Source: an uncultured virus (IMG/VR IMGVR_UViG_3300025000_000094) (Duplodnaviria; Heunggongvirae; Uroviricota; Caudoviricetes). From it: 64,000 nt of DNA. Both the position numbers and the translations under genes were made by a program. This document shows, in pieces, positions 23,606 through 39,929 of the stretch; positions within the stretch are counted from its first letter, which is position 1, and each line of letters opens with the position of its first letter. The stretch lies in IMG/VR virus record IMGVR_UViG_3300025000_000094, one strand, 5' to 3'. The notes beneath the pieces are model-generated. The model had not been told where the DNA came from. It saw only the letters and a list, made by a program, of their open reading frames with translations, and searched no databases.

Positions 23606-23612
23606 ATCACGA

Positions 23613-23641
23613 ATTATACTATATTATATACTCGTTGTCAA
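23613..23641 (-). promoter_or_regulatory. Consensus sigma70 promoter
   Basis: TTGACA-17 bp-TATAAT; ATG only 7 nt downstream. Confidence 0.8.
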
Positions 23642-24189
23642 TGTTGTTTATTGGTTTCAGGAAGGTCATTATATATGTTCATCAGTACGGTTGTAACCTG
23701 ACTTATCAAATCGTAGTTAAACCGAACACCCTTATACGTAAACCCTTCGTAAGAGTGCATCTGGTCTCTAACCCACTCTCTGATGTCTACACATACAGAA
23801 CCATTTGCTTTCGTGAGTGATACACATATGTCAATATTTGGATATTTGTTAATGCTGAAAAGCTTTTTGTTGCCAGTATCAGGAACATCAGAATCAGGTA
23901 CTTCAGGTAGGGATGTTAGGAAGTTAATAACCTCAAGTAAGAACCTATTTGAAATCGTAATACCTTTTTTGGAACTGTAATACTTGTTCTTGTCCACTGA
24001 ATAGGAACTGGCCCTCAAGTCAGTGTACATTCCCATCTTGCCATCAGACTTACGGAACTTAACCAGAGCAATAGCTATATTAGCCGTAGGGCCATTGCGT
24101 ATAGTGCCGTAGATTTTTGGGAAATAATTGGTTATGTACTCTCTATCTCTGTGCTCATGGAAGGCAGAATCAGGCTTATGTGGTATCAT
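23638..24189 (-). CDS. Tandem PC4/p15-like ssDNA-binding protein
   Basis: Two PC4-like units: YTDLR...KKGITI and VDIREW...KGVRF. Confidence 0.65.
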   Translation of the reverse strand: MIPHKPDSAFHEHRDREYITNYFPKIYGTIRNGPTANIAIALVKFRKSDGKMGMYTDLRASSYSVDKNKYYSSKKGITISNRFLLEVINFLTSLPEVPDSDVPDTGNKKLFSINKYPNIDICVSLTKANGSVCVDIREWVRDQMHSYEGFTYKGVRFNYDLISQVTTVLMNIYNDLPETNKQH

Positions 24190-24359
24190 GGTGACTCCTT
24201 AAAATTGACCCCCACATTTGAGCATAAACTATGTAGCTTAGAGGCTTAGGGGGTACTTAAAACGTCTAAAACGTGCTCTCAGGTCACGGTATCCCTAGAG
24301 CGTATCCAGCATTCCGACCATAACCACCAATTAGTGATGGGTAACTGGATTACACTATT

Positions 24360-24388
24360 AATATAGCAGATTCACAAATCATTGTCAA
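24360..24388 (-). promoter_or_regulatory. Sigma70-type promoter
   Basis: TTGACA-17 bp-TATATT with TG extension. Confidence 0.65.
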
Positions 24389-24696
24389 GTCCAAATTTGC
24401 ATTTTTGGGTGGTACTAGGAGGGGCCTAGGTATCATATCCCTGAGAGTCCAGATTCTAATTTCCTCCCCAGACCTGACATACCAAGGTACTTAACTTAGT
24501 GGCTTTTAAAACGCACACGCACTGACGAGATATAGGTACTTCACCTTATCTAATAAAGAATTGGAGGGTGGGTAGTCACATCAGAGCCATTATATATCTT
24601 TACATACGCGTTCGCATAGACTACATATAATAACCTATATATATCTGATACAGTTAATAGCGTCTTAATTATATATATAACTAATCCCGCCCCGTA

Positions 24697-24738
24697 TTGT
24701 TAATAACTTGTTAATAACCCGTTTATATTGTTAATAAC
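24697..24738. repeat. Three copies of TTGTTAATAAC
   Basis: Exact copies at 24697, 24708 and 24728 in an AT-rich non-coding region. Confidence 0.85.
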
Positions 24739-24915
24739 TCTATACTCATATTGCCTAATAATATATATATATAATATAGTCATCTATATGTTAAGTATAT
24801 CATATGGTAAATAGTATACACTCTTATTATATAGTCAACCAATCTAATGGATATCACAATAAGTCTTTAGAACTATTGTGTTATAACTATGTTTATCTAT
24901 TCAATGCCAGACGTA

Positions 24916-24953
24916 AAAGTTAGCCTTGCCTAACAAAGTTAGCCTTGCCTAAC
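24916..24953. repeat. Perfect 19-bp tandem duplication AAAGTTAGCCTTGCCTAAC
   Basis: Read directly. Confidence 0.9.
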
Positions 24954-25157
24954 ATTTTGCCATTTTTCCCATACTTACCGCTAGGTAGGTTTCACCGTTA
25001 CAAACCACAAAAGTAAATCTTGAGCAAAACTTGAGCGAAAGCTTAGGCCCTTGTAAATGCTATAGCCTTCCGCCGTTAAATTGCAACACTATAGCAAAAA
25101 GCAAGTAGCAAACATGTAAAAACCCCTTGTATTTCATCGTTACAAAAAACAAAACGC

Positions 25158-25187
25158 TTTACACAAAAACACGGCATTTGCTACACT
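25158..25187 (+). promoter_or_regulatory. Candidate early promoter
   Basis: TTTACA-18 bp-TACACT with TG extension upstream of the first rightward gene. Confidence 0.5.
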
Positions 25188-25312
25188 TAAAACATGGCAA
25201 AACACAACGGCGGCAACGGCAACACGGCCCACTTTAAACGCCATTATATATAATATATAGCAGATAAAAATAAGACAATTTAGTTAAATCAGATAGTCAT
25301 GGAGAAAATAAC

Positions 25313-25891
25313 ATGGAAAACGTGTCTAAAGTAGCGACAGTCGGAATGAGCGTGAAAAGCGCTGAGGAAATAGCGAAACAGAAGGAAATGGCTAAGACGG
25401 CATATAGCCTACTCGGAATGGAAATGCCCGAAAAGGCCGAAAAGGTGCGGAAAACGTCCACCGGGAGACGGTACAAGCTCGGATACCGTGACCTTGTTGA
25501 CAACGGCAAGAAGATAAACATAAGCGAGTTAATGCCGTATGAAGCGGGGGAACAGGGCATAGACTGCGAGAGCTTGTGTCGGACTGCGCGGGCCTATATA
25601 GCATATAAAATAGGCCATACTCTCAAAGAGTTAAATATTCAGGAAACGGGTCATACTAACTTTTATTTCAGGAACCGTATCACTGAAACAGATAAAAGCA
25701 TAGAAATAGAAGATATGAGCGCTTCTAACGCCTATGAGTTTATCTGGGCCTTTTACAAGGACTGTTTATCCGAAATTACGGATAAATGGGGCATACTTCA
25801 GACTGAAACGGGCGAAAAGGTTTTTTTAGCGGTCAAAAACGGGCACTATCACGTTGTGATGATAGCCGCTCCGGAAGCTAAACAAGCCTAA
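25313..25891 (+). CDS. Hypothetical early protein
   Basis: 192 aa, SD GGAG. Confidence 0.7.
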   Translation: MENVSKVATVGMSVKSAEEIAKQKEMAKTAYSLLGMEMPEKAEKVRKTSTGRRYKLGYRDLVDNGKKINISELMPYEAGEQGIDCESLCRTARAYIAYKIGHTLKELNIQETGHTNFYFRNRITETDKSIEIEDMSASNAYEFIWAFYKDCLSEITDKWGILQTETGEKVFLAVKNGHYHVVMIAAPEAKQA

Positions 25892-26152
25892 GACAAGCAC
25901 TAACGGCGGTCAGAAATGGCCGCCTGTTAGTCATATATATATAAGCATTGATAAACGCTTTTGTATATATGAGTAACAAATAATAAATCAGTATTTCGCA
26001 AGTATCATTCCTTAAAGCGGCGGCCTAGTGGCTTAGTTAGATTGATTATGCCAAATTACATGATTGTTAAGCAAATTTCAGCAGGATTGATTATATCTTT
26101 CATAGTGTCGTATGCTTACATAGTTTGCAACCTTTACTTATAGGATTAAACA

Positions 26153-26341
26153 ATGATTAAATCGATTAAAGTCCTTTACAATACGTACGGATTGACCAAA
26201 GAGGGAGAAGTGATTGTCTCCTTCATTAAGACTGATTTGTTCCAAAAATTGGGCGAATTAGGATGGCTATTCAATTCCATGGAGCTTATGGCTGAAACTC
26301 CTGAGTTTAGCACTTGGGAGATTGAGTTCACTGAGGATTAA
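26153..26341 (+). CDS. Hypothetical protein
   Basis: 62 aa, SD AGGA. Confidence 0.55.
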   Translation: MIKSIKVLYNTYGLTKEGEVIVSFIKTDLFQKLGELGWLFNSMELMAETPEFSTWEIEFTED

Positions 26342-26343
26342 CC

Positions 26344-26622
26344 ATGCAAATAAACATCGGAGACACTATCATCTGCTTTGAAAAGATCGACCCAGAAAAC
26401 TGTTGGACAGGAGTAGTTACTGAATTGCATGGAGAGCGTGGGATATTCAGAAAGGAACAAGGTCGCGATGGACACTGGTTCGGAGGGTTTAGGTCTTCTG
26501 ATATACTAGACATTGTTCACCGTTGGACTAACTGGAATTTCATTAAGCTAGATGATACAGGCAATACTCACAAACTTGAGCGCCTTGCTCCACAGATTAA
26601 CAAAAGAGTAATACGAGATTAA
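26344..26622 (+). CDS. RVIRD-tag family protein 1
   Basis: Starts MQINIGDTI; ends INKRVIRD*. Confidence 0.8.
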   Translation: MQINIGDTIICFEKIDPENCWTGVVTELHGERGIFRKEQGRDGHWFGGFRSSDILDIVHRWTNWNFIKLDDTGNTHKLERLAPQINKRVIRD

Positions 26623-26714
26623 GGAGGCTTATAGATTAAAACATAGTTTACCTAAAATTAGCACTCCGTAGACCTTCAATTAGCAGTTGAAGAATTAAGA
26701 CCGGTTAGGCAGAA

Positions 26715-26969
26715 ATGTCTAGCCGGTTTTATAAACTAAACAAATTTATGCCCATATCAGAATATATAGAAATAACTTGTAGATACTTAAACGAACAGAG
26801 AAGGACTTGCACGTTTCCGAATGGAGTAGGGTTTATAGTGTGTCCTCATCCTAGGTACAGAAGATACGATTGTTCTCGTCCCATTGGAACTAGCGGCTGT
26901 TGGGCATATGATAGCAATGGCAAATAAGTCGTAATTCCAAAAATAATTAAAAGGGTAGTAAGAGACTAA
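26715..26969 (+). pseudogene. RVIRD-tag family protein 2, tag separated by an in-frame TAA
   Basis: ...DSNGK TAA(26925-27) VVIPKIIKRVVRD TAA(26967-69), same frame. Confidence 0.65.
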
Positions 26970-26970
26970 T

Positions 26971-27180
26971 ATGATTAAAGTCGGCTCAATAGTTAAATAC
27001 ATAAACGTAGGCGGTTTATCTAAAGAAACCTACAAGATAGCCACGATTAAAGATGGCTATGTAACTCTTTGCAATGAATATAATAAGATTCATGCACCCA
27101 ACGCTGACCCAAATTATATAGGTAACATTAATTGGTTCAGAGATATTGGCCCTATAGAAAAGAGAGTGGTGAGAGACTAA
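26971..27180 (+). CDS. RVIRD-tag family protein 3
   Basis: Starts MIKVGSIV; ends IEKRVVRD*. Confidence 0.8.
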   Translation: MIKVGSIVKYINVGGLSKETYKIATIKDGYVTLCNEYNKIHAPNADPNYIGNINWFRDIGPIEKRVVRD

Positions 27181-27419
27181 TGAATACATATACCTGCGGA
27201 AACGCTGCTTGCGTAGGAGACTCTGTGCTAGTAATGAACTCTAGCCACCTACAAAGAGTAAGGCCAAGCTTTCTAATCGGACAAACCTTGGATGTCCTTA
27301 AGATTAACAGTAATGGCAATGTCTGTATAGATATCTCTGATGTCTTCTGGAACGCTAAAAGATTTAAGCTAGTATGCAGAAAGAAAGTACGCCCTGTTAT
27401 GAGGGTCGTTAAGGATTAA
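27180..27419 (+). CDS. RVIRD-tag family protein 4
   Basis: TAATG-coupled start MNTYTCG...VGDSV; ends VMRVVKD*. Confidence 0.75.
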   Translation: MNTYTCGNAACVGDSVLVMNSSHLQRVRPSFLIGQTLDVLKINSNGNVCIDISDVFWNAKRFKLVCRKKVRPVMRVVKD

Positions 27420-27420
27420 T

Positions 27421-27681
27421 ATGGAAATTAAAACCGGTGACAAAATAAGATTAGGCTCAGAAGTCGGCGTATACACTTGGCCTCTTCTTGTTATAAAACA
27501 AGACGAATACGGGTATTGCATGACTGAAGACGGGAACAATGTGTCTGGTCATGACGACAACATAGACGCTTTAATGTATGGTCATAAAAACTGGAAAGTT
27601 ATAGAAGTCAAAAGAGGCTCAGAATGGGTATCATTTAAGCCAACTTTGCCAAAGATTAAGAAGAGAGTAATCAGAGACTAA
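27421..27681 (+). CDS. RVIRD-tag family protein 5
   Basis: Starts MEIKTGDKI; ends IKKRVIRD*. Confidence 0.8.
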   Translation: MEIKTGDKIRLGSEVGVYTWPLLVIKQDEYGYCMTEDGNNVSGHDDNIDALMYGHKNWKVIEVKRGSEWVSFKPTLPKIKKRVIRD

Positions 27682-27690
27682 GGAGAAATC

Positions 27691-27930
27691 ATGGAAAGCG
27701 AGTTCAGCAAGGTAATGTATCAGTTGCAGGTAATCAGAGTTTCCGGTACGCCTACATTCTTAAAGCGCGTATCTGAGACTACCCTCACCACCGACACAAT
27801 CGGCGCTAGGCTGAGGACTGAAGCAAGGAAGAGCAACCCTAAAGTTATTAGGGAGTATTTTCCTTCTGACAAAAAGGGAACGATGTTAGTCAGATACAAG
27901 TGGAATACAGACTACGGGAGGGCAAAATGA
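27691..27930 (+). CDS. Hypothetical protein
   Basis: SD AAGGAG; no tag. Confidence 0.6.
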   Translation: MESEFSKVMYQLQVIRVSGTPTFLKRVSETTLTTDTIGARLRTEARKSNPKVIREYFPSDKKGTMLVRYKWNTDYGRAK

Positions 27931-28145
27931 AGGTTGGAGAATTAATCCGTATACTACAAACCCATGACCCGGTCTTAGATGTTGCGGTTCATGACGCTCA
28001 GGAAGAAAGCGTTAGCATGGCTTCCGGAGTTTTCACCGAAACAAAGGGAGAGGAAGATGAACATGTGTACGTCAAAGGCGACCATCCTTTCGACTATTGC
28101 AGAGACAAAGTTACAGATACAATATTAGTAATCACAGGAGGCTAA
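27927..28145 (+). CDS. Hypothetical protein (MKVGELIRILQ type)
   Basis: ATGA overlap with the upstream gene; common phage small-protein start. Confidence 0.6.
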   Translation: MKVGELIRILQTHDPVLDVAVHDAQEESVSMASGVFTETKGEEDEHVYVKGDHPFDYCRDKVTDTILVITGG

Positions 28146-28417
28146 ATGAACAAAGAACATCAGAAGCAGTTTAACTTCACGGTTAATCCGTGGCTTACGA
28201 TAGCCGTCTGGGCCAACCATAAGGCCGAGGCGCTTTCCAAGGCGTACAAGTTCGGCATTGCAGACCTGAAGGTAAAATAACAAGTCGGAGCCGGCCTAAT
28301 CCCATGACATTAGGTTCTGCATGTCAGACTGAAAGCGGCTCCGCACAATTCACATCCGATACGTTTAAAATCTATTATTAGATGGGCTTATGCCTCGTTA
28401 GAAGTCGGATACAATTT

Positions 28418-28708
28418 ATGATGAAAAACTTCCAAGATGGCGATAGAATTTACATAGGCCAAAAGATATATGGCAATGGCTCGTACCGTGGCACTTTAGG
28501 AAGCGGTAGAGAGTTGTTCGCTGATGGAGATGTTTACGTCGTCACAAAATGTTCACAGTCTACATTTGTTAATGACTCCATTTCTGTTAAATGTCTAAAT
28601 TTTCCATACCAAGATTCAGGTTGGTATAGGAAATGGTTTAAGTTTGACCCAGACAATATAGAAATCATGAAACCTGAACCAATGAAAAAGAGAGTAGTGA
28701 GGGATTAA
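28418..28708 (+). CDS. RVIRD-tag family protein 6
   Basis: Starts MMKNFQDGDRI (start refined); ends MKKRVVRD*. Confidence 0.75.
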   Translation: MMKNFQDGDRIYIGQKIYGNGSYRGTLGSGRELFADGDVYVVTKCSQSTFVNDSISVKCLNFPYQDSGWYRKWFKFDPDNIEIMKPEPMKKRVVRD

Positions 28709-28710
28709 TT

Positions 28711-28989
28711 ATGCCAGAAACAAAAATACTTCCTGAAGTCGGAGACCATTTACAGCTTTTCAATAACAAAGGAAAGCTAGAATACGACCTAACCATAAAG
28801 AAAGGTGCATCCGGGTACAAAGGCGATACCGGATGGGCTAATACTGCTTCCTATAAAACCATAGAAGAGTTATGCAACATCTCTTGGGCCGGGGTTAGGA
28901 TTAAGAAAATGGACGGGACACTATACTGGTGGAAAGAAGTTTTTGTTCCTGCTATGCCCAAGATACATAAACGGGTAATCAAAGATTAG
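28711..28989 (+). CDS. RVIRD-tag family protein 7
   Basis: PEVGDHL; ends IHKRVIKD*. Confidence 0.8.
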   Translation: MPETKILPEVGDHLQLFNNKGKLEYDLTIKKGASGYKGDTGWANTASYKTIEELCNISWAGVRIKKMDGTLYWWKEVFVPAMPKIHKRVIKD

Positions 28990-29015
28990 AAGTTAAAAGT
29001 CAAGGAGGATAGTAA

Positions 29016-29441
29016 ATGAAGAAAGTAAAGAAAGCGGTTGTTAGGATAGCGAAGAAGATGAAGAAGCCCGAAGTTAAGTTCTTCGGCTTTAAGGTGGTAG
29101 TCCGTGAGGGTGTGAAGCTGATGTCATGCACCAAGGCCGGACTTTCGGTTCAGTACATAACCGACAAGTTCGTGTCTCCCAGGATGTGGGGTGGCCCTCT
29201 GACTGTGTTCGAGAGCAAGTTCCTCGCGATAGGGTTCTGCGAGAAGCTTCTTTCGACCGTCAAAGAAGAAAACATCCGTGTCTATCGCTGCGAATACGTC
29301 CCGACGATGTGTCAGCATGTCTGGCGTTACCGTGACGGCGGACTGAAGTTCAAGAGCATCAACGAACTCCCCGAGAAGTCCATCCTCGCCAAGAGGGTGA
29401 AGCTTCTGAAGCGTGTAAGCAGTAAGATGTTAGAGACCTGA
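29016..29441 (+). CDS. Hypothetical basic protein
   Basis: SD AAGGAGG; GC-richer codons than its neighbours; no tag. Confidence 0.65.
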   Translation: MKKVKKAVVRIAKKMKKPEVKFFGFKVVVREGVKLMSCTKAGLSVQYITDKFVSPRMWGGPLTVFESKFLAIGFCEKLLSTVKEENIRVYRCEYVPTMCQHVWRYRDGGLKFKSINELPEKSILAKRVKLLKRVSSKMLET

Positions 29442-29564
29442 TAGTGCAGAAAAACAGCAACAGCAGACATCGCCTCGTGCATCGTCTGTGGAACCCGGTT
29501 AAAGTCCGAAGATGCTGTAAGACGGTTTTTGCCCATGTTCCGAGCAAAATGTGGGCTTAAATTT

Positions 29565-29803
29565 ATGAAATATAACACTTGTGATACAGTTAATGAAGTT
29601 TCTGAGACTTACCATTCCGGAGAAACTCCCCAAAGAGGGGATTATGTGGTAGTCATAACAAGAGACTCTTCATATTTTGGGAGATACTTTAAAGTTCTAA
29701 GTTTTGAAGGGTTTACTGCGCATTTCCAGGATAGAAAAACGTGTCTATTTTTGGATAAGCTACAAAAAAGACCAAGATACTACTGAGGGTAGTAAGAGAT
29801 TAA
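29565..29803 (+). pseudogene. RVIRD-tag family protein 8, tag in the -1 frame
   Basis: PQRGDYVVV domain; ORF stops at 29786, but the -1 frame reads KKTKILLRVVRD* to 29803; A6 run at 29764-29769. Confidence 0.6.
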
Positions 29804-29804
29804 C

Positions 29805-30143
29805 ATGACATTCCAAAACATACAACCCGGAGACTTTATTCTATTTGCCGCTTCTAATGGGACTAAGTATTACCATAAGATGTGTAAAGATGAAAGAGGG
29901 TGGTATACGTCAGTACATTCTAAGGGAAAGATAGGGAACGAGTCTTGGCCTTATGGATACATTACAATTCCAAATTGGTCTCCAACCCAAAACATATTCC
30001 CGTATTTTGAAATATGGAAATCAAACTGGGATATGTATTATTGCGGAGTAGAGAATGGGAACTCTTTAACTCATATAGATAACCCTTTACCGATTAGTAA
30101 ATTTTATCGTCCAAAAATGAAAAAAAGGGTTATTAGAGACTAA
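29805..30143 (+). CDS. RVIRD-tag family protein 9
   Basis: IQPGDFI; ends MKKRVIRD*. Confidence 0.8.
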   Translation: MTFQNIQPGDFILFAASNGTKYYHKMCKDERGWYTSVHSKGKIGNESWPYGYITIPNWSPTQNIFPYFEIWKSNWDMYYCGVENGNSLTHIDNPLPISKFYRPKMKKRVIRD

Positions 30144-30149
30144 ATTTAC

Positions 30150-30269
30150 CCGACCTAGTCAAACGAGTCCAAGCACCTAGTAAGTAAGAGCGAACGGTCT
30201 GTACGACAATTAGCCACTCCTGAAGAGTCATGGCAGAGTAGACGAAAAGGGTTAGACTCCTCTGGTCGG
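30150..30269 (+). ncRNA. Candidate structured RNA with a hammerhead-like core
   Basis: Closing helices CCGACC/GGTCGG and GAGTC/GACTC; CTGAAGA-GTC..GAC-GAAA core. Confidence 0.4.
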
Positions 30270-30277
30270 CATTTTAT

Positions 30278-30532
30278 ATGAATACATACATAAACGGTAG
30301 ACAACCAAAGATGGGTGATTGTGTTGTTATAGTCAGACATCCAAACGACCACCCATTATTTAAGATGTGGTTTAAATATGTAGTTATAAGAGCAGAAACT
30401 ACGTACGTAAAACTAAATAATAGATATTCTGTTTATTTAGACTATGTAAGTCATTACGACGATTTGACCGATGCTGAAAAAGAGCTGGTCGAAAAGAACT
30501 CAACAGTAGTTAAAAGAGTAATCAGAGACTAA
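30278..30532 (+). CDS. RVIRD-tag family protein 10
   Basis: MNTYING...KMGDCVV; ends VVKRVIRD*. Confidence 0.8.
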   Translation: MNTYINGRQPKMGDCVVIVRHPNDHPLFKMWFKYVVIRAETTYVKLNNRYSVYLDYVSHYDDLTDAEKELVEKNSTVVKRVIRD

Positions 30533-30541
30533 GGAGATAAC

Positions 30542-31018
30542 ATGGAAACTAAGACTAAAGGCGAAGAAATGGTTGCCAAGAGGAATCTGTGCAACTTCAA
30601 GATAAAGCGGGCTGTCGGTGGCGTGGAGATATTCATTAAGTCGGAACTTTACGAGGACTTCTTTAATAAGATTTCCTCCGGCAAGGCGATAAAGGCTCCG
30701 TCCGGTTCGTTCTTCGGAGAGGGCGAGAAGTATTACGACGTTAAGAAGTGCTCAGTACCTCGCTCAGACTACGAGTATGGCGTGTCTGTTGCGGATTACG
30801 GTCGCAGGGAGTTGATTAACCCCGACAACGCGTCTTATGACTTCTCGTTCATTAAGACTGTCGGCATCAAAGACGGAGTGAAGTTCACTGTAAACGGGAT
30901 GTTCCTGCAGGAAGACATCGAACGTCTTCAGAAAGACTTCACTAAGTTCACCAAAGCGTTCTTCATCAACTACGCTAAAGAGAACTCCATAGAAGTCACC
31001 ATAAGCGCGATAGCCTGA
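30542..31018 (+). CDS. Hypothetical protein upstream of the amidoligase
   Basis: 158 aa, SD AAGGAG. Confidence 0.7.
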   Translation: METKTKGEEMVAKRNLCNFKIKRAVGGVEIFIKSELYEDFFNKISSGKAIKAPSGSFFGEGEKYYDVKKCSVPRSDYEYGVSVADYGRRELINPDNASYDFSFIKTVGIKDGVKFTVNGMFLQEDIERLQKDFTKFTKAFFINYAKENSIEVTISAIA

Positions 31019-31032
31019 TACCGGGAGGTATA

Positions 31033-31719
31033 ATGGAAGAGAAGAAACTATACGACAAAAAGTTCGTCCATATAGACAAGGTGGGACTAGAATTAGAGGG
31101 AGGGTGGGAGAATCCCCCGTCTTTCCAGATAGCAGGTGATTCTAGCGTCCACTGTAACGGGAACGAACTGGGAGAGGCTAGGACAGTCCCGCAGGATAAC
31201 CTTAAAGACGTATTCAACGAGATAAACACAAAATATCCCGATGATATAGACGCTTCCTGCGGTATGCACATCCACATAAGTATAAAGAATGGGATGCTTT
31301 TTCAGGTAGCTGATAAGAAGTTCCGCGATTACTTCATATATCGCATGGGATTACTTGCCAAATACCTTAGACATTCCGGCAATGAGACAGACTATAAGCG
31401 GTTCATCGCTAGGTTCAACAATAGCAATACCTATTGCAAGAGAGAGTTCGCACCTAGGGAACAGCTCAGAGGTGGCAACTCTCGTAGGACTATGCTCAAC
31501 TTCTGTGCTTATAGGAAGTATAAGACTGTGGAGTGCCGTCTTCTGCCTATGTTTGAGAATCTTTCAAACGCTAGGATGGCCGCATATGAGGTAGTGGACA
31601 CGTTCGAGAGTTACCTTGAAAAAGAAAGCGTAAACTACGAGCCTGTTGAGGTGGATATAGAGGTTAACAACTCTTTCTTCGTACCCGACAATGTTTCAAT
31701 GGAGGTAATATGTGCGTAA
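31033..31719 (+). CDS. Putative amidoligase (COOH-NH2 ligase, glutamine-synthetase-like fold, Amidoligase_2 type)
   Basis: GLELE, GDSSV, E-x3-P, SCGMHIHIS, R-x2-LN and TVECR motifs in the expected order. Confidence 0.8.
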   Translation: MEEKKLYDKKFVHIDKVGLELEGGWENPPSFQIAGDSSVHCNGNELGEARTVPQDNLKDVFNEINTKYPDDIDASCGMHIHISIKNGMLFQVADKKFRDYFIYRMGLLAKYLRHSGNETDYKRFIARFNNSNTYCKREFAPREQLRGGNSRRTMLNFCAYRKYKTVECRLLPMFENLSNARMAAYEVVDTFESYLEKESVNYEPVEVDIEVNNSFFVPDNVSMEVICA

Positions 31720-32393
31720 TAGTCGCAATGGAAAGCAAGATACCTAGCCTTGAAACACTCAAGCTATGTGAGAAGAAGAACCCTCACGGTGGAGGCATCT
31801 CGTGGGTTCACAAAGATAAGGTGCATTTCAAGAAAGGCATCCAAGCTGAAGAGATACATTCTATCGCAGTAGAGTTCGGCCCGCCTTGTATCGCGCACTT
31901 CCGCATTTCTACAGTCGGAGGTGTACCCAAAAGTCTAGCGCATCCGTTCCCAATACAGAAAGTAATGACTGATGACCTTGAGGGAGAGGCTAGTTCTGTT
32001 CTCTTCCACAATGGTCACTGGAAAGATTGGGAAGAAGAGTGCTATCGCATGGTTCTTGCCAAAGGAGCCAACTTCACAGATGGGGATTGGTCTGATAGTA
32101 AGGCTATGGCATGGCTGACTGCGTGTTCGCATCATTCCTTCCTTGGATTCCTCAAATCACAGAGAGTTGCAATTCAGACCCCAAAAACCAGAATATACTA
32201 CGGTTCTTGGGAGAAGAAAGACGAAACGTGGTATAGTAACCTTAATTGGGAAGAAAAGGATTACTCCAAGTACCGCCACACCGGCAAAATGGATGATACG
32301 TGGTGGGAGAAACATGGTTGGACATATGAAGAAAGCGCCGACGGTGGTGGTGCGTGGATTCCTCCGAGCGAGAAAGTTGGTGATTCCAAATGA
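31710..32393 (+). CDS. Class II (Ntn) glutamine amidotransferase-like protein
   Basis: N-terminal MC nucleophile, NPHGGG, HFRISTVG, HPF, LFHNG, SDS. Confidence 0.88.
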   Translation: MCVIVAMESKIPSLETLKLCEKKNPHGGGISWVHKDKVHFKKGIQAEEIHSIAVEFGPPCIAHFRISTVGGVPKSLAHPFPIQKVMTDDLEGEASSVLFHNGHWKDWEEECYRMVLAKGANFTDGDWSDSKAMAWLTACSHHSFLGFLKSQRVAIQTPKTRIYYGSWEKKDETWYSNLNWEEKDYSKYRHTGKMDDTWWEKHGWTYEESADGGGAWIPPSEKVGDSK

Positions 32394-32608
32394 AAGGATA
32401 CCAGACTGGAACCGTGGTTGAAGTAAGCGGACAAGACGCTATTCTTTCTCAGGTTAATTACGGAGAGATATGCCTTATTGACATACAATCCGGAAATCGT
32501 TGGCATGACCCCATTCCTGTCGACTGTGCAGACACGATACCTATCTCTAAAATAAAGGAGGCGGCGGATTTTGAACCCATAAAGATAAAAATGGCTAGAT
32601 TTGCTTAA
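32390..32608 (+). CDS. Hypothetical protein
   Basis: ATGA-coupled; LIDIQSGNRW. Confidence 0.55.
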   Translation: MKGYQTGTVVEVSGQDAILSQVNYGEICLIDIQSGNRWHDPIPVDCADTIPISKIKEAADFEPIKIKMARFA

Positions 32609-33218
32609 TATGACAACACTTACAATCAAGGGAATAGAGTATAATATAGACTTTATTGAGGATTCGCACGAATACTATGTAAATGGTACAAAAGTTCCGT
32701 GTGTGTCCAACTATCTATCTGATGTTCTTTCCAACAATGAGCCAATCCCTGAGTACGCTATGCCCGCGGTCAAAAGGGGAGTTGTGTTCCATAAGATAAT
32801 AGCCCTTGATTTAACCTGTGGTGTAGATATTCAAAGTATAGATGAAGGTCTTAAGGGTTATTGGGATTCCTACCAGTTGTTTAAATCAGAACACACTTTA
32901 ATTCCTGATGCAGTTGAGGGTATAATTTACAACCCTGTAGAGAATGTCTGCATGACGTTGGATTACCGTGGCATATTAGATTGCTCAAAGAGCCTTGTGG
33001 ATTGGAAAACAGGCGGTATGTATGCAAAGTATAGGGCACAGCTTGGAGGATACTATCGAGGGGCCGTGGAGTGCTTTGGATTTATACCTGAATTACTTGC
33101 CGCGGTACAAATTTTTAAGAATGGTAAAAAAGCTAAAGTTCATGAGTACGACATAAATGACTGTTCCCATAGATGGGGGTCAATACATGAAGTTTATAAC
33201 ATGAGGAGAGAAAGATGA
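32601..33218 (+). CDS. PD-(D/E)XK exonuclease (Cas4/RecB-like)
   Basis: FIEDSHEYY..VPCVS, RGVVFH, TLD...LVDWKTG, QLGGY. Confidence 0.8.
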   Translation: MLNMTTLTIKGIEYNIDFIEDSHEYYVNGTKVPCVSNYLSDVLSNNEPIPEYAMPAVKRGVVFHKIIALDLTCGVDIQSIDEGLKGYWDSYQLFKSEHTLIPDAVEGIIYNPVENVCMTLDYRGILDCSKSLVDWKTGGMYAKYRAQLGGYYRGAVECFGFIPELLAAVQIFKNGKKAKVHEYDINDCSHRWGSIHEVYNMRRER

Positions 33219-33342
33219 AAATATACGCTTGCGACACTTGTCAGCATAAAGAGAACGCGACTTGTCCTTGGGCCATATATATATGGTTCAGATACAACAG
33301 AGAAGTTTGTTCTGATTATAGGAGATTTAAATAGGAGATAAT

Positions 33343-33792
33343 ATGACAGGCTTACAAAAACTGGTGAAACTTTTAGAGAGAGACCTAGATAAAATAACGG
33401 AGATAAGTTGCATTTCCGAGAGCAATAGAATAAAGGGGTATTTAGACTGTGCCCGCCTCCTCCTCTCCCAAGAGCGTGAGCAGACGGAGGGGTTGGTGGA
33501 GGAGTTTAAGAAGTGTGTGGATAGGCATAAAACACATTGGAATAGCCAATGGGCAATAAATACCATGGAAGAAATCCTCTCTCGCTACACCCCCACGGAG
33601 AGCATAGCGGAGAAGCCGCTGGTGATGACTTCCCAAGTATTCTGGCACGATGATGAGGATGGCGGTGGATGGGCGTTTACTGTTAGAAAAGGCAAGGAGG
33701 TTATCAGGCGTGGATGCGCGGACACAAAGGAAGATGCCGAAGCCAAGGCCCGCCAGTATTTAAATTCGTTACCCGACAAGGAGGTGAGATAG
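33343..33792 (+). CDS. Hypothetical protein
   Basis: 149 aa, SD AGGAG. Confidence 0.6.
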   Translation: MTGLQKLVKLLERDLDKITEISCISESNRIKGYLDCARLLLSQEREQTEGLVEEFKKCVDRHKTHWNSQWAINTMEEILSRYTPTESIAEKPLVMTSQVFWHDDEDGGGWAFTVRKGKEVIRRGCADTKEDAEAKARQYLNSLPDKEVR

Positions 33793-33970
33793 ATATGTTG
33801 TTTGGATTAGAGTTGGACAATTATGCCATAACCATTGCGCTTGTAGCTAGTTGCCTTAATTGGGTATTTCTTTGTTGGGCGATAGCCATAGACCCGAGTG
33901 AACACCATAAGGGGCATTGGACTACGAAAGATATATTTGAATACCGCCCCAAGGACAAAGGAGCCTCTAA

Positions 33971-34471
33971 ATGATAATCACGGAGAAAATGTTGAGCAAA
34001 GAAGAAAACCCATGTGATGATGGTCTGGCGTGGTTCAAGAAAGAACCCAACCACGATATGACGGCCTTGGTTAAGTCTGCCATAAAACAGGGTGGAGAAC
34101 CCATGAATTATGTCGGGTGGGGCCTGTGTGCTGTAATGACCAAAGAACAGCGCATAGAGTGGGGCATATTCTCGGCTTATCAGGTAGCGCACCTATGGAA
34201 AGACAAGTCCCCCAAAGAATACGCCATATGGGACGAGTGGGCGAGTGGTAGGGATAGGTCAAACGCCGCTAGGGCCGCCGCTAGGGACGCCGCTAGGGAC
34301 GCCGCTAGGGACGCCGCTTGGAACGCCGCTAGTGACGCCGCTAGGGACGCCGCTAGTGACGCCGCTTGGAACGCCGCTAGGGCCGCCGCTTGGAACGCCG
34401 CCCACAACAAAACGTTAGCCAAAATACTCCGTTACGGGGTTAAGATATTGAACGAGGGAGGGAGGAGATAA
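33971..34471 (+). CDS. Hypothetical protein with AA(R/W/S)(D/N/A) tetrapeptide repeats
   Basis: [11 protein letters not shown]-terminus and about 12 Ala-rich repeats, a common phage family. Confidence 0.7.
34262..34402 (+). repeat. Coding 12-bp tandem repeat (consensus GACGCCGCTAGG), about 12 units
   Basis: Read directly. Confidence 0.9.
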
Positions 34472-34472
34472 T

Positions 34473-36836
34473 ATGTTCGGAATAGACAAAATAAAACTAG
34501 ACCTCATACGCCTTTGGAACGCCATAGAGAGGGTGGATAAAACTGCTACTTGCGCTCTTAAAGATGGGGATGTCAGACACGAGGTTGTCCACAGGTTGAA
34601 TAAACAGGTGCAAGAACAGGGGCAAGCCATACACGCGCTATCTGAATATTTGGGGGTAACTTTTACGCACAAGAGCGTGCCAGACCCGTCTATGCTACCC
34701 CCCGCCCCTATCATGATGGAAGTAATGGTCTGTGTCCCCCGCCCGTCCACGACAGGCGAGGAAAAGGGGGAGAAATGAAAGCCAAGGCTTATCCAAGTTG
34801 TAAAGAGTTCCCTTGTGAAAGCATCTCCTGTGATGGTGCCAATATCCTACGGGAAATAGAAGTAGAAATACCCACCGCCGACCTTATCGCAGAACTGGAA
34901 CGGAGGAGGCCGTGTAAAAAATGCGTTACGCAATCCGATATGCGGTGCGTGTCTTGTGTATGGAGCGCAGTTTACTCTATGAATAAAAAAGACAACTTCA
35001 CACCCAAAAGCGAGGAGGTAAAATGAAAGCTAAAACCAAAGAGGCGATAGGGGCAGTAATAGAGGACTTATGCTCTAACGGAATTGGGGACCAGACAGCC
35101 CTCGCAAAAATCTGCGCCATAGTAGAACAGGAGAGGCAGGGGGAATTAGTGATAGCGAATGGACGGGTAGCGCGCAAAATCCACAAAGATAAATGGGCTT
35201 TGATGGTAGGGCGGTTAGGCCGTCTAATTTTCATCCCCGACGAGGTGACGAAATGAGGGCGAACGTGGATAAGGAATGGGCGTTTTTAGTGCTTTCTTTG
35301 GTGTGGGGGATTTTAACTGTGGGATGGTATATATTGGAGGCCAAATGAGCAAGTATATTGTGGAACTGGAAACCAACAATCCGAAGATGGCCGCAAATTA
35401 TACACGGGAAGAACTGGAAAAGATATTTGACAAAGCGCAAGAGGTGGTGGAGGTAGATGCCGTATCAATGCAATACTACGGCGAAACAGAGAATGGAAAG
35501 ATACACGATAAAGACGGGTGGCATGTAAAGTTGTACGCCGCTAAACTGGAGGAGAAGAAATGAAGTTCACACATAAAAGGGTTTTTATAGTTAATGTCCA
35601 CAGAAAATGGGAGGAGGTTGTTAAAAGCATGGAGGATAACGATTGGGAACTGTTCCAAGTAATAAGAGAAGGCGCGGAAGGCTTCTGGACATTCTGGAAA
35701 AAGGAGGCCAAATGACCAACAAAGAGAAGGTGCTAGAGAAAGCGTGGGATTTATCCTTAACGCATCAACTAAAACAAGGGTGGGGTTCGTGCTATGAAGT
35801 TAACTGTCCTAAACTACAGGACGGGCCATGCTTTGACCCTAAAGAGTATATGTGCCGCAGATATATTAAGGCACACTTCCTCTCCCTCGCCGCCAAGTCA
35901 ATAAAGGAGAAAACATGAAAGAGATTATGTTATACGACGGTGAAATAGTAAACGGCAGAATTGGCATATCTAGCGGAGTAGATTCAAGAAAATACCATTT
36001 AATAAAAGACAGAGTGCCTTGTATAATTATGGTGGAAAAGAAATATTTAAAACTGCCAAGAAATAATAAGAACTAATGTGTGGTTGCCACGGGCCAATGC
36101 CGGACATCAAGAATCCGTTACTGCAATACCCGTCTTGTGCATAGCATAGGTAAACACAAGGCCACACCCAATTAAAGGAGAAATAACTATGGCTAAAAAG
36201 AAGATGTGTCCGAAATGGATTAAGCCCTATATGCTTGGTGGCTTAAACTTGTCTGGGGTATGCGTAAATAAAGCATTAGACCCTAGTAGATGCCATAAAA
36301 ACGTAAACGAAAAGTGCGAAATAGTCCAGCCCCGTAAAAAGGATAAGGTTATTAAGGCGTGGGCTTTTAGATATAGGGATAGAGAGGGGTTGCTTAAATT
36401 GTATGCCAATGAGCATAAATCCTCAATGCCAGTAAAAAATATACCCTGTACAATAACCATAAAGGCCGATGCGTGGGATAAGATAAAGGGGGATAAATGA
36501 CATACGCATTATACGGAGTAATGGGAGTGGTTTTGGGGTTTATACTGGGCAGGGTGTCTTTTGAAGAGACAGGCTTATGGAAGTGCCCTATTTGCAAAAA
36601 CTCAACGAATGACAAGTACGAGTGCCCAATTTGCAATAAAAGGAGATATGATGACTAAGATTTTTATATCAGTTGGTTGGTTTTTCATTAATCTATACGG
36701 ATGGGCATATGTTTTACATAATACAGATTCGCGCTCATGGATTATTTTCCCACTTTCTTTAACTTCCGTTATATTTATGCTTTTTAGCTTAGCTATTTTT
36801 ATTTTGTCGGTAATAGAATATGAAGAAAAACACTAA
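34473..36836 (+). other. Run of small, tightly packed hypothetical early genes
   Basis: ORFs 34473, 34775, 35023, about 35345, about 35712, 36189 and about 36648 with SD-like GGAG/GAGG sites and overlapping stops and starts. Confidence 0.6.
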
Positions 36837-36842
36837 ATTAGC

Positions 36843-36872
36843 TTTACAGATTTGGTTGACTTGTAGTATAAT
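36843..36872 (+). promoter_or_regulatory. Candidate promoter for the recombination/replication block
   Basis: TTTACA-18 bp-TATAAT. Confidence 0.55.
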
Positions 36873-36917
36873 TACAAACATTATACTCATAGCCACCATT
36901 ATACTAAACACATAGAC

Positions 36918-37688
36918 ATGGAGAATAAAATGAAGATACAGATAGTTTCGTTGAAAACAAGGTCAAGCAGGAAATCTCCTGTTTCGTCCGCTAACATACT
37001 TAAGGTTGCAGAAGGGCTTTCTTTTAACAAGAAAATGCTTATCAAGAACTGTGAGAATAAGCTCATGGTTTGCGATAGGCTAAAGCACTATGCACTCAAT
37101 CATGGTCTAAACTTCAGTATAACGACCAAGCGTGGGACTAGGACCATAGAGATAGTTAAGGAGAAAAATGCCAAAGCCAAAAAAGATATCCATATTGACA
37201 TGTCCGCGTTGCCGTCAGTCTATTGAGGCTAAGAGCAAATTCTGTAATAGTTGCGGTAGAAGGATAGGTTTTGGCATAAGGTCCGAGAACGAAATAAGAG
37301 CAGCTATTAATAAGCTAGACAATACGTCATTTGTTATTAACGACTTAAGCCTAAAACCCGGTCTAATGTCGGATATTGGTCTTATCAACTATATCCTTCA
37401 TTGGGTCGTAGGAGAAGAAGAAACTGAGCCTACAGATATGTTGGCTAAAGGTCTTCAAAACGACGATAAAGTAAGAGGAAAACAAAAATGAATAAACATC
37501 AGAAGTTTTGGGGAATAGTAAACAATAAAACGTCAAGAGTTAGCAGGAACATGAGTGGGTATAACATATTCCCAACTCGTGAATCTGCTAGGCAGAATAT
37601 GAAGGCTCAGATGAAAAGCAAAAAAGGCAACTACCACGTTGAACTTTTATATGTTGAGGTTGAAACAGCGTCTGGTAAGGAGGAATAA
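36918..37688 (+). other. Three hypothetical genes (36918-37226, 37168-37491 with Zn ribbon, 37488-37688)
   Basis: Co-oriented, coupled ORFs; CPRC...CNSC in the second. Confidence 0.55.
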
Positions 37689-38335
37689 TGAGTGAATTAC
37701 ACGAAGCGTTGCTTGAGGTGCAGAAAGAGATAAAACCTGTTAAAAAGACAGTTAATAATCATTTCTTTAAGTCAAAGTACGCAGACCTTGAGTCGGTTGT
37801 AGAGGCTGTTATGCCTGTTTTATCCAAAAATGGCATAGCTTCCGAACAAACGACCTATGTCGAAAATGGCATAACTATTCTTAGGACTAAGCTTGTGTAT
37901 GCTAAGACAGGAGAGGAAATCCATAGCGATATGCCTCTTATATGCAAAGACCCAAATGACCCTCAGAAGGTTATAGCCAGTCTTACGTATATGAGACGGG
38001 CTTCTTTGACCACAATATGCGGCCTTGCAACACAGGATGATGATGGCAACACGGCATCCGGTAAAGAAGAGCCTAAAACTGGTCTTAAAGTACCTGCTCC
38101 GCTTAAGAAATTAACTGAAGATAAAATAGACAATACCAAATTAGTAACATTTGTGTCTTCTTCTTTTGATTCTCAGGCAGGAGTTTACATAATGAAGACA
38201 GTCCGTGGGGACGTTTATTATACCGAAAAGGAGGTACTAGCCAAGATAGTTCGCAACAGTTTCGGTAAAGCGTTGAAGATATCTATGACTGTCAACAACG
38301 AGATGCAAAACATCTTGCTAGAGGTTCTTGCATAG
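37688..38335 (+). CDS. erf: ERF family ssDNA-annealing protein
   Basis: NHFFKSKYADLESV...DPQKVIASLTYMRRASL...DDDGN. Confidence 0.9.
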   Translation: MSELHEALLEVQKEIKPVKKTVNNHFFKSKYADLESVVEAVMPVLSKNGIASEQTTYVENGITILRTKLVYAKTGEEIHSDMPLICKDPNDPQKVIASLTYMRRASLTTICGLATQDDDGNTASGKEEPKTGLKVPAPLKKLTEDKIDNTKLVTFVSSSFDSQAGVYIMKTVRGDVYYTEKEVLAKIVRNSFGKALKISMTVNNEMQNILLEVLA

Positions 38336-38453
38336 TGTCTTTGTTGTGGTGGTTGGTGTGCATATTGGTAATGATACTTGTAGCCGTTAATTGGGACGGC
38401 TGATTGACTGGAGGCTCAGATTGAGGGAGGTCTGGGCCTCTATAATTTATATT

Positions 38454-38999
38454 ATGAGATACTTTATAAGTGATACCCATTTTAACCACAAAAACGTAAT
38501 AAAATATGACAAAAGGCCATTCGATTCTTTAGAAGAAATGGAATGGGAAATTATAAAAAGGTGGAATAATACTGTGTCTAACAAAGACATAGTTTATCAC
38601 CTTGGAGATTTTGGCTTTGGTAATCCCAAAAGATTCAGGGAAATAATAAAGTGCCTAAATGGGGAAATAAACCTAATACGTGGGAACCATGACCTACAAA
38701 ATGCTTTTACAGCGAAAAGGTGCGTAATGGATGATGGAACTCCCATGTTCAACGACTTGGGAGATTTGGATGTTATAGTTATAGATGGGATACAATGCAC
38801 TCTGTCCCATTACCCGTACAAAGAAGACAGGTTCCCTCAGTATTGTCCACAAAACGTAGGGAATGTATTAATACATGGTCATAGCCATAACTACGTCCCG
38901 GTATACCACGATGGTCAAATAAACGTTTCCTGTTGTTTATGGGATTACACACCTGTTTCTGAAAAGCAGATTATAAAAATGATAATGGAGAACCTATAA
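38454..38999 (+). CDS. Calcineurin-like metallophosphoesterase
   Basis: ISDTHFNH, HLGDF, RGNHD, LSHYP, HGHSH; start refined. Confidence 0.9.
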   Translation: MRYFISDTHFNHKNVIKYDKRPFDSLEEMEWEIIKRWNNTVSNKDIVYHLGDFGFGNPKRFREIIKCLNGEINLIRGNHDLQNAFTAKRCVMDDGTPMFNDLGDLDVIVIDGIQCTLSHYPYKEDRFPQYCPQNVGNVLIHGHSHNYVPVYHDGQINVSCCLWDYTPVSEKQIIKMIMENL

Positions 39000-39682
39000 T
39001 GGAACAAAACTACTATATCGTTATACCCGCCCCTGTTTTTATGGATAGGAGGTTATCTTCAAGTGCTATGGTATTATACGGTCAGATATCTTCTCTCTGC
39101 AATCAGAGTGGATACTGTTGGGCAACAAACTCTTATTTTGCAAAAATAAATGATGTTAGCAAAAACACAATAAGCTCTATTGTTTCAAAACTTGAAGAAT
39201 GTGGTCATATTTCTTCTGATATTAAAAAAGATGAAAATGGGGCTATTATAGCCAGAAACATAAAAATAGCTATACCTATCCCGTTTATTCCACAGGCACC
39301 TATAGCAGAAAACTTGGAGAATAATATTAAAGCAGAGAATACTAAAGAAGATACTACTTGTGCAACAGGCGCTAGTGCGCCACAAAACAAGGTTAATTTC
39401 AGTAACCCAAAGTCAGAACTGCAAGCTTTTATGGTGTATTACATAGAGAAGTGCAATCCTGCAATGTACAAGGAAGCAGACCCTAAACAGGTTTCGGGCT
39501 TCTTTAGACAGTATGGCAAAATGTTCAGTGCTATGTTAGCTACTGCCGGCAGCGTAGACCGCGCAAAGATAGCCGTAGACGAGGCTATTGTGTTTTTTGG
39601 TAGTAAGGGCTACCAATGGGGTTTAAAGGCCCTTTCGACCAATTGGGAGCAGTTTGTAGGTAAAGCTATGGAGAAGAAATAA
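38999..39682 (+). CDS. Replication initiator with N-terminal HTH
   Basis: YYIVIPA...LYGQISSL...GYCWATNSYFA...LEECGHI. Confidence 0.8.
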   Translation: MEQNYYIVIPAPVFMDRRLSSSAMVLYGQISSLCNQSGYCWATNSYFAKINDVSKNTISSIVSKLEECGHISSDIKKDENGAIIARNIKIAIPIPFIPQAPIAENLENNIKAENTKEDTTCATGASAPQNKVNFSNPKSELQAFMVYYIEKCNPAMYKEADPKQVSGFFRQYGKMFSAMLATAGSVDRAKIAVDEAIVFFGSKGYQWGLKALSTNWEQFVGKAMEKK

Positions 39683-39683
39683 T

Positions 39684-39929
39684 ATGCCTAAATATATGTT
39701 CTCTGGTAAATATATAACCAAACAGTTTAGGAAAGGTAGTAAATGCCCATATTGGCCTATAAATAGATGTGACTGCGTTATTGATGAAATAAGTAGTTCA
39801 GAGCATTTCCAAATAGCAGATAAGTTTTGTAGTAGATTTGTTGAATACTGCAAATCTCCATTATCTTTTACTGATACGTATCCAGAGATTGTTGTTGAAG
39901 TATTCCATGGTAGAGTAATAAAGGACTAA
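39684..39929 (+). CDS. RVIRD-tag family protein 11 (outlier)
   Basis: Cys-rich body; ends FHGRVIKD*. Confidence 0.65.
   Translation: MPKYMFSGKYITKQFRKGSKCPYWPINRCDCVIDEISSSEHFQIADKFCSRFVEYCKSPLSFTDTYPEIVVEVFHGRVIKD

Follow-up and report, generated by a model that had tools for sequence, protein, structure and literature searches.

Small phage proteins with a shared C-terminal tail adjoin an amidoligase/amidotransferase gene trio and are predicted to dock on its ligase

The window analyzed here is a 64,000-nucleotide stretch of DNA from an uncultured virus of the Caudoviricetes (IMG/VR record IMGVR_UViG_3300025000_000094). On its + strand, positions 26344-32393 form one block, in which a series of small open reading frames (ORFs; 69-112 residues) is followed by a gene trio (30542-32393) that encodes a 158-residue protein, a carboxylate-amine ligase, and a protein resembling the class-II, N-terminal-Cys glutamine amidotransferases (GATases). 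The small proteins, referred to below as tags, differ in their cores and share a ten-residue C-terminal tail, and complex prediction places this tail on the ligase. It is probable that tags and trio are functionally linked in some way, and physical docking of the tails on the ligase is likely, if held with somewhat less assurance. Our favored reading, to which we give a probability of roughly one in three, goes further: the tagged proteins would be clients of the ligase, their tails docked and their C-terminal carboxylates activated with ATP, then amidated or joined to a small amine. The trio is the core of a known, uncharacterized phage amidoligase/GATase cassette. What is new is that the cassette adjoins small proteins that share a tail, that the tail varies with the lineage, and that docking of the window tail on the ligase is predicted; literature searches found no paper describing such tail-sharing arrays.

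Tail-sharing arrays upstream of the gene trio

The three genes of the trio all lie on the + strand, with the 158-residue protein encoded at 30542..31018, the 228-residue ligase at 31033..31719, and the 227-residue GATase-like protein (start MCVIV) at 31710..32393; the ligase and GATase-like genes overlap by 10 nucleotides. These positions, taken from the ORF list, are the same as those in an earlier, sequence-only reading of this DNA. That reading had described a tag array followed in the same orientation by the trio, an overlap between the last two genes, and the ligase motifs GLELE, CGMHIH, and TVECR, all of which were confirmed. The array is also real in statistical terms. Indeed, six-frame translation of the window gives 12 matches to R[VI][VI][RK]D followed by a stop codon, always on the + strand and 10 times within 26344-30532, whereas 300 block shuffles of the whole window gave 0.013 matches on average and never more than 1.

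The wider tail motif is P-x-[IM]-x-K-R-V-[IV]-[RK]-D. Outside this near-invariant tail, the tags are 21-37% identical to the first one, and they are too divergent to be linked to each other by BLAST of the small ORFs within the locus. In the ESM Atlas, the tag gave only matches with a TM score below 0.5; on visual inspection, the cores have a possible likeness to SH3 domains. The tails of the window are conserved at the peptide level and not at the DNA level: the third codon position is 44% identical, as compared with 81% and 88% at positions 1 and 2, and 270 tail codon pairs include 122 that are synonymous but different and 58 that are non-synonymous.

Similar arrays were found beside two other trios. 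The first, on a 3.9-kb metagenome contig (L053), has the gene order of the window, with a ligase 51% identical and a GATase 61% identical to those of the window. Three FKGCTIRD tails lie directly upstream of this trio, a GGACT gene (2e-16) is found inside the array, and a further tag-like ORF begins after the GATase. The second, on a 40.6-kb viral contig (L070) whose ligase is 32% identical to that of the window, is made up of six small ORFs that overlap one another and immediately precede the trio. Their tails (ETVFP, EEVFP, HEVMFP, REVILP, VEVLP, and NEIIFP) follow the pattern E[VI]x[FL]P, and the third codon positions are again free, being 36% identical against 67% and 79% at positions 1 and 2. 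An origin of the tails from a repeated DNA element, or from half of a DNA palindrome, was rejected, because third codon positions are free in both the window and L070. The last residue is invariant within a lineage and differs between lineages (Asp in the window, Asp in L053, and Pro in L070), and all 19 tails of the three lineages end exactly at the stop codon.

Altogether, 162 viral and metagenome loci were fetched, of which the first 81 were used for some of the tests, and these loci hold 72 distinct adjacent ligase-GATase pairs. Arrays accompany three of the 72 pairs, and every array abuts its trio on the same strand. In the tail clustering of the 162 loci, a test that requires at least three copies per locus, the lineages of the window, L053, and L070 were the sole ones to have arrays of at least five members or with identical tails. 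Weak three-member sets were also flagged on L018/L121 (one contig), L060, and L133 and are taken as chance; in the tail-shuffle control, which covered the first 81 loci, 0.68 loci per shuffle (maximum 3) contained at least three weakly alike tails. Searches with the tag profile returned six matches in a word-indexed collection, all of them window-type or L053-type tags, and 10 among 1.84 billion representatives, namely tags of these same two types and one unrelated 2567-residue repeat protein. At the DNA level, the pattern FKGCTIRD plus stop had no match in IMG/VR, and KKRVIRD plus stop matched only the phage of the window and one 8-codon chance frame. As to the co-occurrence of tags and ligase, proposed as a check in the sequence-only reading, tags of this tail type, known from two lineages only, were not found without the ligase in these searches, and 69 of the 72 pairs have no array.

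The module also includes the protein of about 160 residues that is encoded at the start of the trio. With an iterative hidden Markov model, the ORFs of the first 81 loci gave 39 members of its family, most of them directly upstream of a ligase, and the family is present at most 700 nucleotides upstream in 25 of the 72 ligase-GATase pairs. It is poorly conserved, with R23 and E38 as the only near-invariant residues. The model of the window protein is confident (pLDDT 90.5) and alpha/beta, and no known fold was matched: VIA-align gave a best Z of 3.4 (AHSA1-like) and type III secretion chaperones at Z of about 3, Foldseek gave nothing below E 0.3, and the ESM Atlas, where the model of this protein has a pLDDT of 0.40, provided no usable lead. 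Tandem trios, two to four in number, are present on some contigs. For example, three tandem trios and a fourth ligase were found at 6166..15991 of L065 (a contig shared with L004 and L016), and two trios with an extra ligase at 7652..15313 of L002. The tandem trios on these large viral contigs suggest several parallel substrate lines.

The enzymes of the trio and the predicted tail-ligase complex

The window ligase scores 19 bits (E 0.0014) against Pfam Amidoligase_2 (PF12224), which is below the gathering threshold of 22, and matches PHROG 2443, 'amidoligase enzyme', at E 3.2e-4. In a collection of 5.8 billion proteins, 29 relatives were found at E <=1e-3, and 10 of these 29 homologues reach PF12224 at E <=0.01 (best 3.2e-5). 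On these profile scores, the window ligase is a divergent relative of Amidoligase_2 and not a scored member, which makes the family names of the sequence-only reading weaker than implied. The five closest homologues (P0002-P0006) are 51-66% identical. Among the matches listed in the genome and metagenome scans, close ligase relatives were those of L052 (same phage) and L053, and the others were distant. The residues invariant in the 29 homologues are G18, E20, L21, E22, G23, W25, D36, S38, E48, and P69, as well as G77, H79, H81, T165, E167, R169, P172, and M173. These include the key residues of the three motifs, GLELE (G18, E20, L21, E22), CGMHIH (G77, H79, H81), and TVECR (T165, E167, R169), and the metal- and nucleotide-binding set ExE, HxH, and ExR (E20, E22, H79, H81, E167, R169), whose roles we presume to be those of the equivalent residues in glutamine synthetase.

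An AlphaFold2 model of the ligase built on the homologue alignment (pLDDT 88.4, pTM 0.83) was compared with 48,161 chains using VIA-align. The top 19 rows, with Z values from 9.5 to 6.8, are all glutamine synthetase, glutamate-cysteine ligase, YbdK or YbdK-like proteins, Dop, or PafA, and the next, unrelated row has a Z of 5.2. These matches include 11zs_A (Z 9.5, root-mean-square deviation 3.3, 171 aligned residues), 1tt4_A (Z 9.2), Dop 9cku_G (Z 8.4), and PafA 4bjr_A (Z 8.0). Foldseek gave weak matches (best E 0.034), with glutamine synthetase and YbdK at the head of the list, and a profile search of PDB sequences with the ligase was empty. The glutamine-synthetase/PafA fold that had been assigned from the motifs is thus supported by structural matches with Z values of up to 9.5. 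The protein is a minimal carboxylate-amine ligase core, no closer to PafA than to glutamine synthetase.

For the GATase-like protein, no Pfam match was obtained with the window protein itself. Its relatives in the protein collection number 15 and were combined with ORFs from the fetched loci into an alignment of 35 sequences, in which M1-C2 is near-invariant (90% or more) and H63, R65, H78-P79-F80, N101-G102, and D129 are invariant; R65, N101-G102, and D129 sit in HFR, HNG, and SDS motifs, respectively. Seven of the 35 sequences match PF13522 GATase_6 (best E 1.1e-5). The profile of the family found only 1te5_A, a class-II-like structure, among the PDB sequences, in a weak alignment with an E of 0.17. 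The class-II assignment made in the sequence-only reading keeps its N-terminal Cys hallmark (M1-C2) and the candidate pocket residues R65, N101-G102, and D129, with Pfam matches confined to the seven relatives. We take Cys1, Arg65, Asn101-Gly102, and Asp129 as counterparts of the residues that serve glutamine binding and catalysis in PurF and GlmS (Arg73, Asn-Gly, Asp). On that assumption, the ligand would be glutamine or a gamma-glutamyl group whose alpha groups are free, and a glutaminase or gamma-glutamyl hydrolase would be favored over a general isopeptidase.

The complex of the ligase, the 158-residue protein, and the 86-residue tag encoded at 27421..27681 was predicted in three runs, each protein having its own alignment. 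The ipSAE values were 0.71, 0.67, and 0.71, and three controls, two with the tag swapped for an unrelated protein and one with the ligase swapped, all gave 0.00. The mark used for ipSAE is reached by 116 of 157 solved complexes and by 2 of 215 mismatched pairs, a calibration that is rough for a prediction with own alignments and three chains. At least 93% of the contacts agree between runs, the pLDDT of the partner is at least 61, and the tag, whose core is predicted to be folded, has a pLDDT of 86 in two of the three runs. No solved complex of like kind was available, the profile search of PDB sequences being empty.

In the model, the interface comprises residues 50 and 76-86 (LPKIKKRVIRD) of the tag and residues G24, E26, N27, C41-N44, N65, Y68-D73, N117, and E175-S178 of the ligase. 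V83 and I84 of the tag pack on Y68, P69, and L177 of the ligase, and K81 and R82 face an acidic patch formed by E26, D70, D71, D73, and E175. No contact of the tag with the 158-residue protein is listed in the output. The interface residues flank the ends of the ligase strands that carry E20/E22, E48, H79/H81, and E167/R169, which would place the tail at the rim of the catalytic sheet. Modeling of the tail on the ligase had been suggested in the sequence-only reading; in the model, the tail does dock (ipSAE 0.71), with the catalytic residues outside the listed interface.

Moreover, tails and ligases differ together. The sequence YPDD[ITV][DN] is present in 7/7 close-clade ligases and in 0/10 other aligned ligases. 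In L053, where C replaces R at tail position -5, the ligase has I-K at the positions of E175-N176 of the window. The ligase of L070, a lineage whose tails contain Glu, lacks D71 and D73 and carries K-R at positions 177-178. This co-variation, seen in three lineages only, would fit the docking picture. The earlier claim of a link between tags and ligase is strengthened on two sides, by the tail-sharing arrays directly upstream of the trio in three lineages and by the docking scores of 0.71 against 0.00.

Possible roles of the tails and comparison with known systems

In the favored reading, ten or more small upstream proteins would be clients of the ligase in the window lineage. Their shared end, P-x-hydrophobic-x-K-R-V-[IV]-[RK]-D-COOH, would dock on the acidic patch, as predicted by the model, and the free C-terminal carboxylate would then be activated with ATP. 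Enzymes of this fold form an ATP-dependent acyl phosphate on a carboxylate, which is then attacked by ammonia or an amine. The most likely outcome would be amidation by ammonia freed from glutamine by the GATase, an enzyme of the class-II (Cys1) glutaminase type that would be translationally coupled to the ligase; otherwise, the carboxylate may be joined to another small amine. Ammonia derived from glutamine is suggested as the nucleophile because a class-II GATase is joined to the ligase by gene overlap. Similarly, the fact that all 19 tails end at the stop codon suggests that the free C-terminus matters, and, since the alpha-carboxylate is the sole carboxylate common to the Asp- and Pro-ending tails, C-terminal amidation or small-amine ligation is favored. 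For chemistry of any kind at the tag C-terminus, the slight chance of protein conjugation included, we see a serious possibility that falls somewhat short of even odds.

Several observations speak against clients of this kind. The catalytic residues E20, E22, H79, H81, E167, and R169 are outside the listed interface, and docking beside the active site, not in it, fits an adaptor role equally well. The complex score is a measure of model confidence, calibrated only roughly for three chains with their own alignments. No tail array is detectable in 69 of the 72 distinct pairs; the enzymes therefore do not need tags, and the tags would not be the general substrate of the trio unless single clients escape the test for at least three copies. 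Arrays are found in three lineages only, and the co-variation rests on those three. The presumed pocket mapping of the GATase onto PurF and GlmS has as its sole direct support the weak alignment with 1te5_A (E 0.17). Finally, a GGACT is present in the L053 array, and a GGACT, a second ligase, and an ATP-grasp enzyme are present in fuller cassettes. These genes suggest that gamma-glutamyl bonds, and not a simple transfer of ammonia, may be involved.

The tails could instead dock and remain unmodified, with the tags acting as adaptors or regulators whose hypervariable cores bring host or phage targets to the ligase or switch the enzyme on or off. We give this a minority chance, the best among the alternatives. 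The predicted docking site is a patch on the ligase surface, next to the active site, with no catalytic residue among the listed contacts, and the chemistry of the tail differs by lineage (basic with a terminal Asp, or Glu and hydrophobic residues with a terminal Pro), as for co-evolving docking motifs. The contrast between cores that are only 21-37% identical and near-invariant tails agrees with this role, and the fact that most cassettes work without arrays fits add-on specificity factors. However, 19 of 19 tails are exactly C-terminal and have a last residue that is invariant in each lineage, which is not required of a docking motif and is explained by an enzyme that uses the carboxylate. 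In addition, an adaptor has no known target here, and the core fold is not established, with Atlas TM scores below 0.5 only.

It is also possible, at odds only slightly lower, that there is no physical link, the trio acting on a small molecule, a cell-wall precursor, a nucleotide, a DNA base, or one host protein, and the tags being unrelated early paralogues whose tail has a different partner. The 69 of 72 distinct pairs without an array are consistent with such independence, and a short basic peptide on an acidic patch can be over-predicted. Cell-wall modification against superinfection was suggested for phiEco32 by Iyer et al. 2009, according to a passage of PMC10580990 in which the function 'remains to be explored', and an excerpt of PMC8989533 describes thymidine-hypermodification genes accompanied by amidoligase and amidotransferase genes whose role is unknown. 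Independence of tags and trio is at odds, however, with the position of the arrays, which in all three lineages directly adjoin the trio in the same orientation and have no comparable counterpart elsewhere in the 162 loci. The complex model reaches 0.71 against 0.00 in three controls, and the charge complementarity is clade-specific. As for DNA bases, no hydroxymethylase, kinase, or aGPT-type DNA-modification family was detected when 42 proteins, including 37 encoded by the window, were scanned with Pfam.

The sequence-only reading had proposed a pupylation-like system, in which the ligase would activate the invariant terminal Asp and join it to host lysines or cell-wall amines, and the N-terminal-nucleophile (Ntn) enzyme would amidate or deconjugate. 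In a wider, equally improbable form of protein-to-protein tagging, the ligase would recognize a lineage-specific tail and activate its carboxylate, and ten or more hypervariable proteins would be joined to host targets in a ubiquitin- or Pup-like manner with many modifiers, editing or reversal of the bond being left to the Ntn enzyme and, in relatives, to GGACT. In favor of a pupylation-like system, PafA and Dop have the same fold as the ligase (Z 8.0 and 8.4), docking of the tail on the ligase is predicted, and the terminal Asp is invariant in 10/10 tails of the window array and 3/3 tails of L053. We nevertheless regard this reading as very improbable: the six L070 tails end in Pro, so that neither a terminal Asp donor nor any side-chain carboxylate is general; glutamine synthetase and YbdK (Z 9.5 and 9.2) match the ligase at least as closely as PafA does; the tag core is predicted to be folded, with no GGQ/GGE end; the region has no Dop homologue, and neither a proteasome nor an Mpa-type family was detected in the Pfam scan of the 42 proteins; ten different modifiers in a single system would have no known precedent; and the GATase-like protein keeps the residues that we take to bind free glutamine.

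Among known systems, the phage amidoligase cassette of the phiEco32/LUZ24/PaP3 type, which we take to combine Amidoligase_2 (PF12224) and a class-II GATase (PF13522), often with COOH-NH2_lig (PF14395), ATP-grasp, and GGACT, was reportedly described by Iyer, Abhiman, Burroughs, and Aravind in 2009. Like this cassette, the module of the window lies in the early/replication region of a phage, places a ligase gene next to one for a Cys1 GATase-like protein, and has the same invariant ligase motifs. A LUZ24/phiEco32-type gene set is listed in the gene table of PMC3890496. Among the relatives of the window module, a fuller cassette with GGACT, PF14395 ('phiEco32-like COOH-NH2 ligase type 2'), and ATP-grasp was found on L015 and L021; on L015, GGACT was matched at 7e-28 and PF14395 at 2.6e-11, with a weak match to RimK. 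The window differs in having the trio only: PF14395, ATP-grasp, and GGACT were absent from the 37 window proteins scanned with Pfam, as from the first 14 scanned. It also differs in its very short ligase (228 residues, below the Pfam cut-off), in the conserved first gene of about 160 residues, and in the preceding shared-tail array, with a tail predicted to dock on the ligase.

The likeness to PafA/Dop and Pup lies in the glutamine-synthetase-fold ligase (Z 8.0 for 4bjr_A, 8.4 for 9cku_G) and in the C-terminal segment of a small protein predicted on it. Pup is disordered, ends in GGQ or GGE, and provides a Glu side chain as the donor. By contrast, the tag cores are predicted to be folded, the tails have [RK]D or [FL]P at the end, there is no proteasome link, and ten different small proteins take the place of one. 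The region has only one gene of the glutamine synthetase fold, whose partner is of the Ntn type, with no Dop-type paralogue. Glutamine synthetase, glutamate-cysteine ligase, and YbdK provide the best structural matches (Z 9.5-9.2) and have the ExE, HxH, and ExR residues that are invariant here; the chemistry is likewise expected to proceed through an acyl phosphate, with ammonia or an amine as the nucleophile. The window ligase is distinct from them in being a catalytic core only, of 228 residues against 350-470, in being joined by gene overlap to a separate Ntn GATase, and in its candidate substrate, a protein end and not free glutamate. C-terminal carboxylates are modified by RimK on ribosomal protein S6, by LysX on the carrier LysW, and by tubulin-tyrosine ligase. 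The tails would be comparable to these clients in ATP-dependent ligation at a defined C-terminal tail recognized by the ligase, whereas the three enzymes have the ATP-grasp fold, one client each, and no known GATase partner.

The amidoligase/GATase cassette is widespread in phages and has appeared in genome papers since 2009, with no substrate known. The ten-residue peptide with predicted ligase binding, together with the two further tail-ligase pairs of L053 and L070, represents a first testable candidate for the target of the cassette. Should the tails prove to be substrates, viruses would have a previously undescribed way of modifying protein C-termini enzymatically; as adaptors, the tagged proteins would amount to a modular set of targeting factors for an enzyme that modifies proteins or metabolites. 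Either outcome would help to explain a common block of phage early genes.

Array members and genomic surroundings

The window array, all on the + strand, begins with a 92-residue protein ending in INKRVIRD (26344..26622). It is followed by an ORF at 26715..26927 that ends in an in-frame TAA, behind which a 13-codon tail remnant (VVIPKIIKRVVRD) lies at 26928..26969; the sequence here is identical in the phage contig L001. The whole of 26715..26969, with its 70-residue ORF, in-frame TAA, and perfect tail, is either a decayed member or a case of stop read-through. Next come tagged proteins of 69 residues ending in EKRVVRD (26971..27180), of 79 residues from ATG ending in VMRVVKD (P0050; 27183..27419), and of 86 residues ending in PKIKKRVIRD (27421..27681), the last being the copy used in the complex model. 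Further tagged proteins were located at 28382..28708 (108 residues as listed, ending in KKRVVRD) and 28711..28989 (92 residues, ending in HKRVIKD). A broken tag gene at 29529..29803 has its tail (29759..29803) out of frame owing to a 25-base-pair deletion between AAAAAG repeats, as compared with L001, an otherwise identical contig in which the gene (8472..8771) is intact and encodes 99 residues ending in LRVVRD. The array is completed by proteins of 112 residues ending in KKRVIRD (29805..30143) and of 84 residues ending in VKRVIRD (30278..30532).

A 141-residue protein of unknown function is embedded in the array (29016..29441, + strand). It is 75% identical to the product of 274..657 on L053 and represents the best-conserved gene common to both arrays (the ligase is 51% identical), and its C-terminal region contains two KRV repeats (AKRVKLLKRV). 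No Pfam or NCBIfam family was matched, and a PHROG of unknown function gave a weak match at E 0.005. Outside of the array, an 81-residue ORF ending in GRVIKD, 7 kb downstream of the trio (39684..39929, + strand), is a possible outlying member. A second tail-like end, SRIVRD-stop, is found at 42936..42953, just 3′ of a tRNA-Gln (42851..42924). On L144, eight tightly packed small paralogues (5343..7756) were recognized by within-locus BLAST 2.2 kb upstream of a distant GATase-like gene; they have MIKYxIxQ starts and an AIxEYN motif near the end in common, and the extreme tail is not shared.

The block sits in the early/replication half of a phage with a GC content of about 40%. It is followed downstream by genes for an ERF recombinase, a helix-turn-helix protein, and a metallophosphatase, and a terminase-like gene (20168..21790) and an SU10-type portal (16239..18248) lie upstream on the opposite strand. 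The ligase protein, the 141-residue protein, and 10 kb of the region were all without a match in GenBank phage records, NCBIfam had no family for six proteins of the region, and the nearest virus record (G001) has no ligase. The window contains two distinct phage structural modules. The part with about 40% GC (1..46000) is that described above, and the part with about 60% GC (46100..64000) encodes, all on the - strand, small and large terminase subunits, a portal, a protease, a major capsid protein, a tape measure, and a tail fibre. No host gene was found between the two modules, and the window is either a chimeric contig or two adjoining phages.

Two further genes of the early region were noted. 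A radical-SAM protein (40724..41662; phrog_9298, E 6.5e-51) is encoded three genes past the outlying GRVIKD ORF. Finally, a 166-residue protein at 33971..34471 contains a run of AARDAA/AAWNAA repeats, and a similar AAYAA-repeat protein is encoded on L070 (6265..6732), just upstream of the tag array of that contig.

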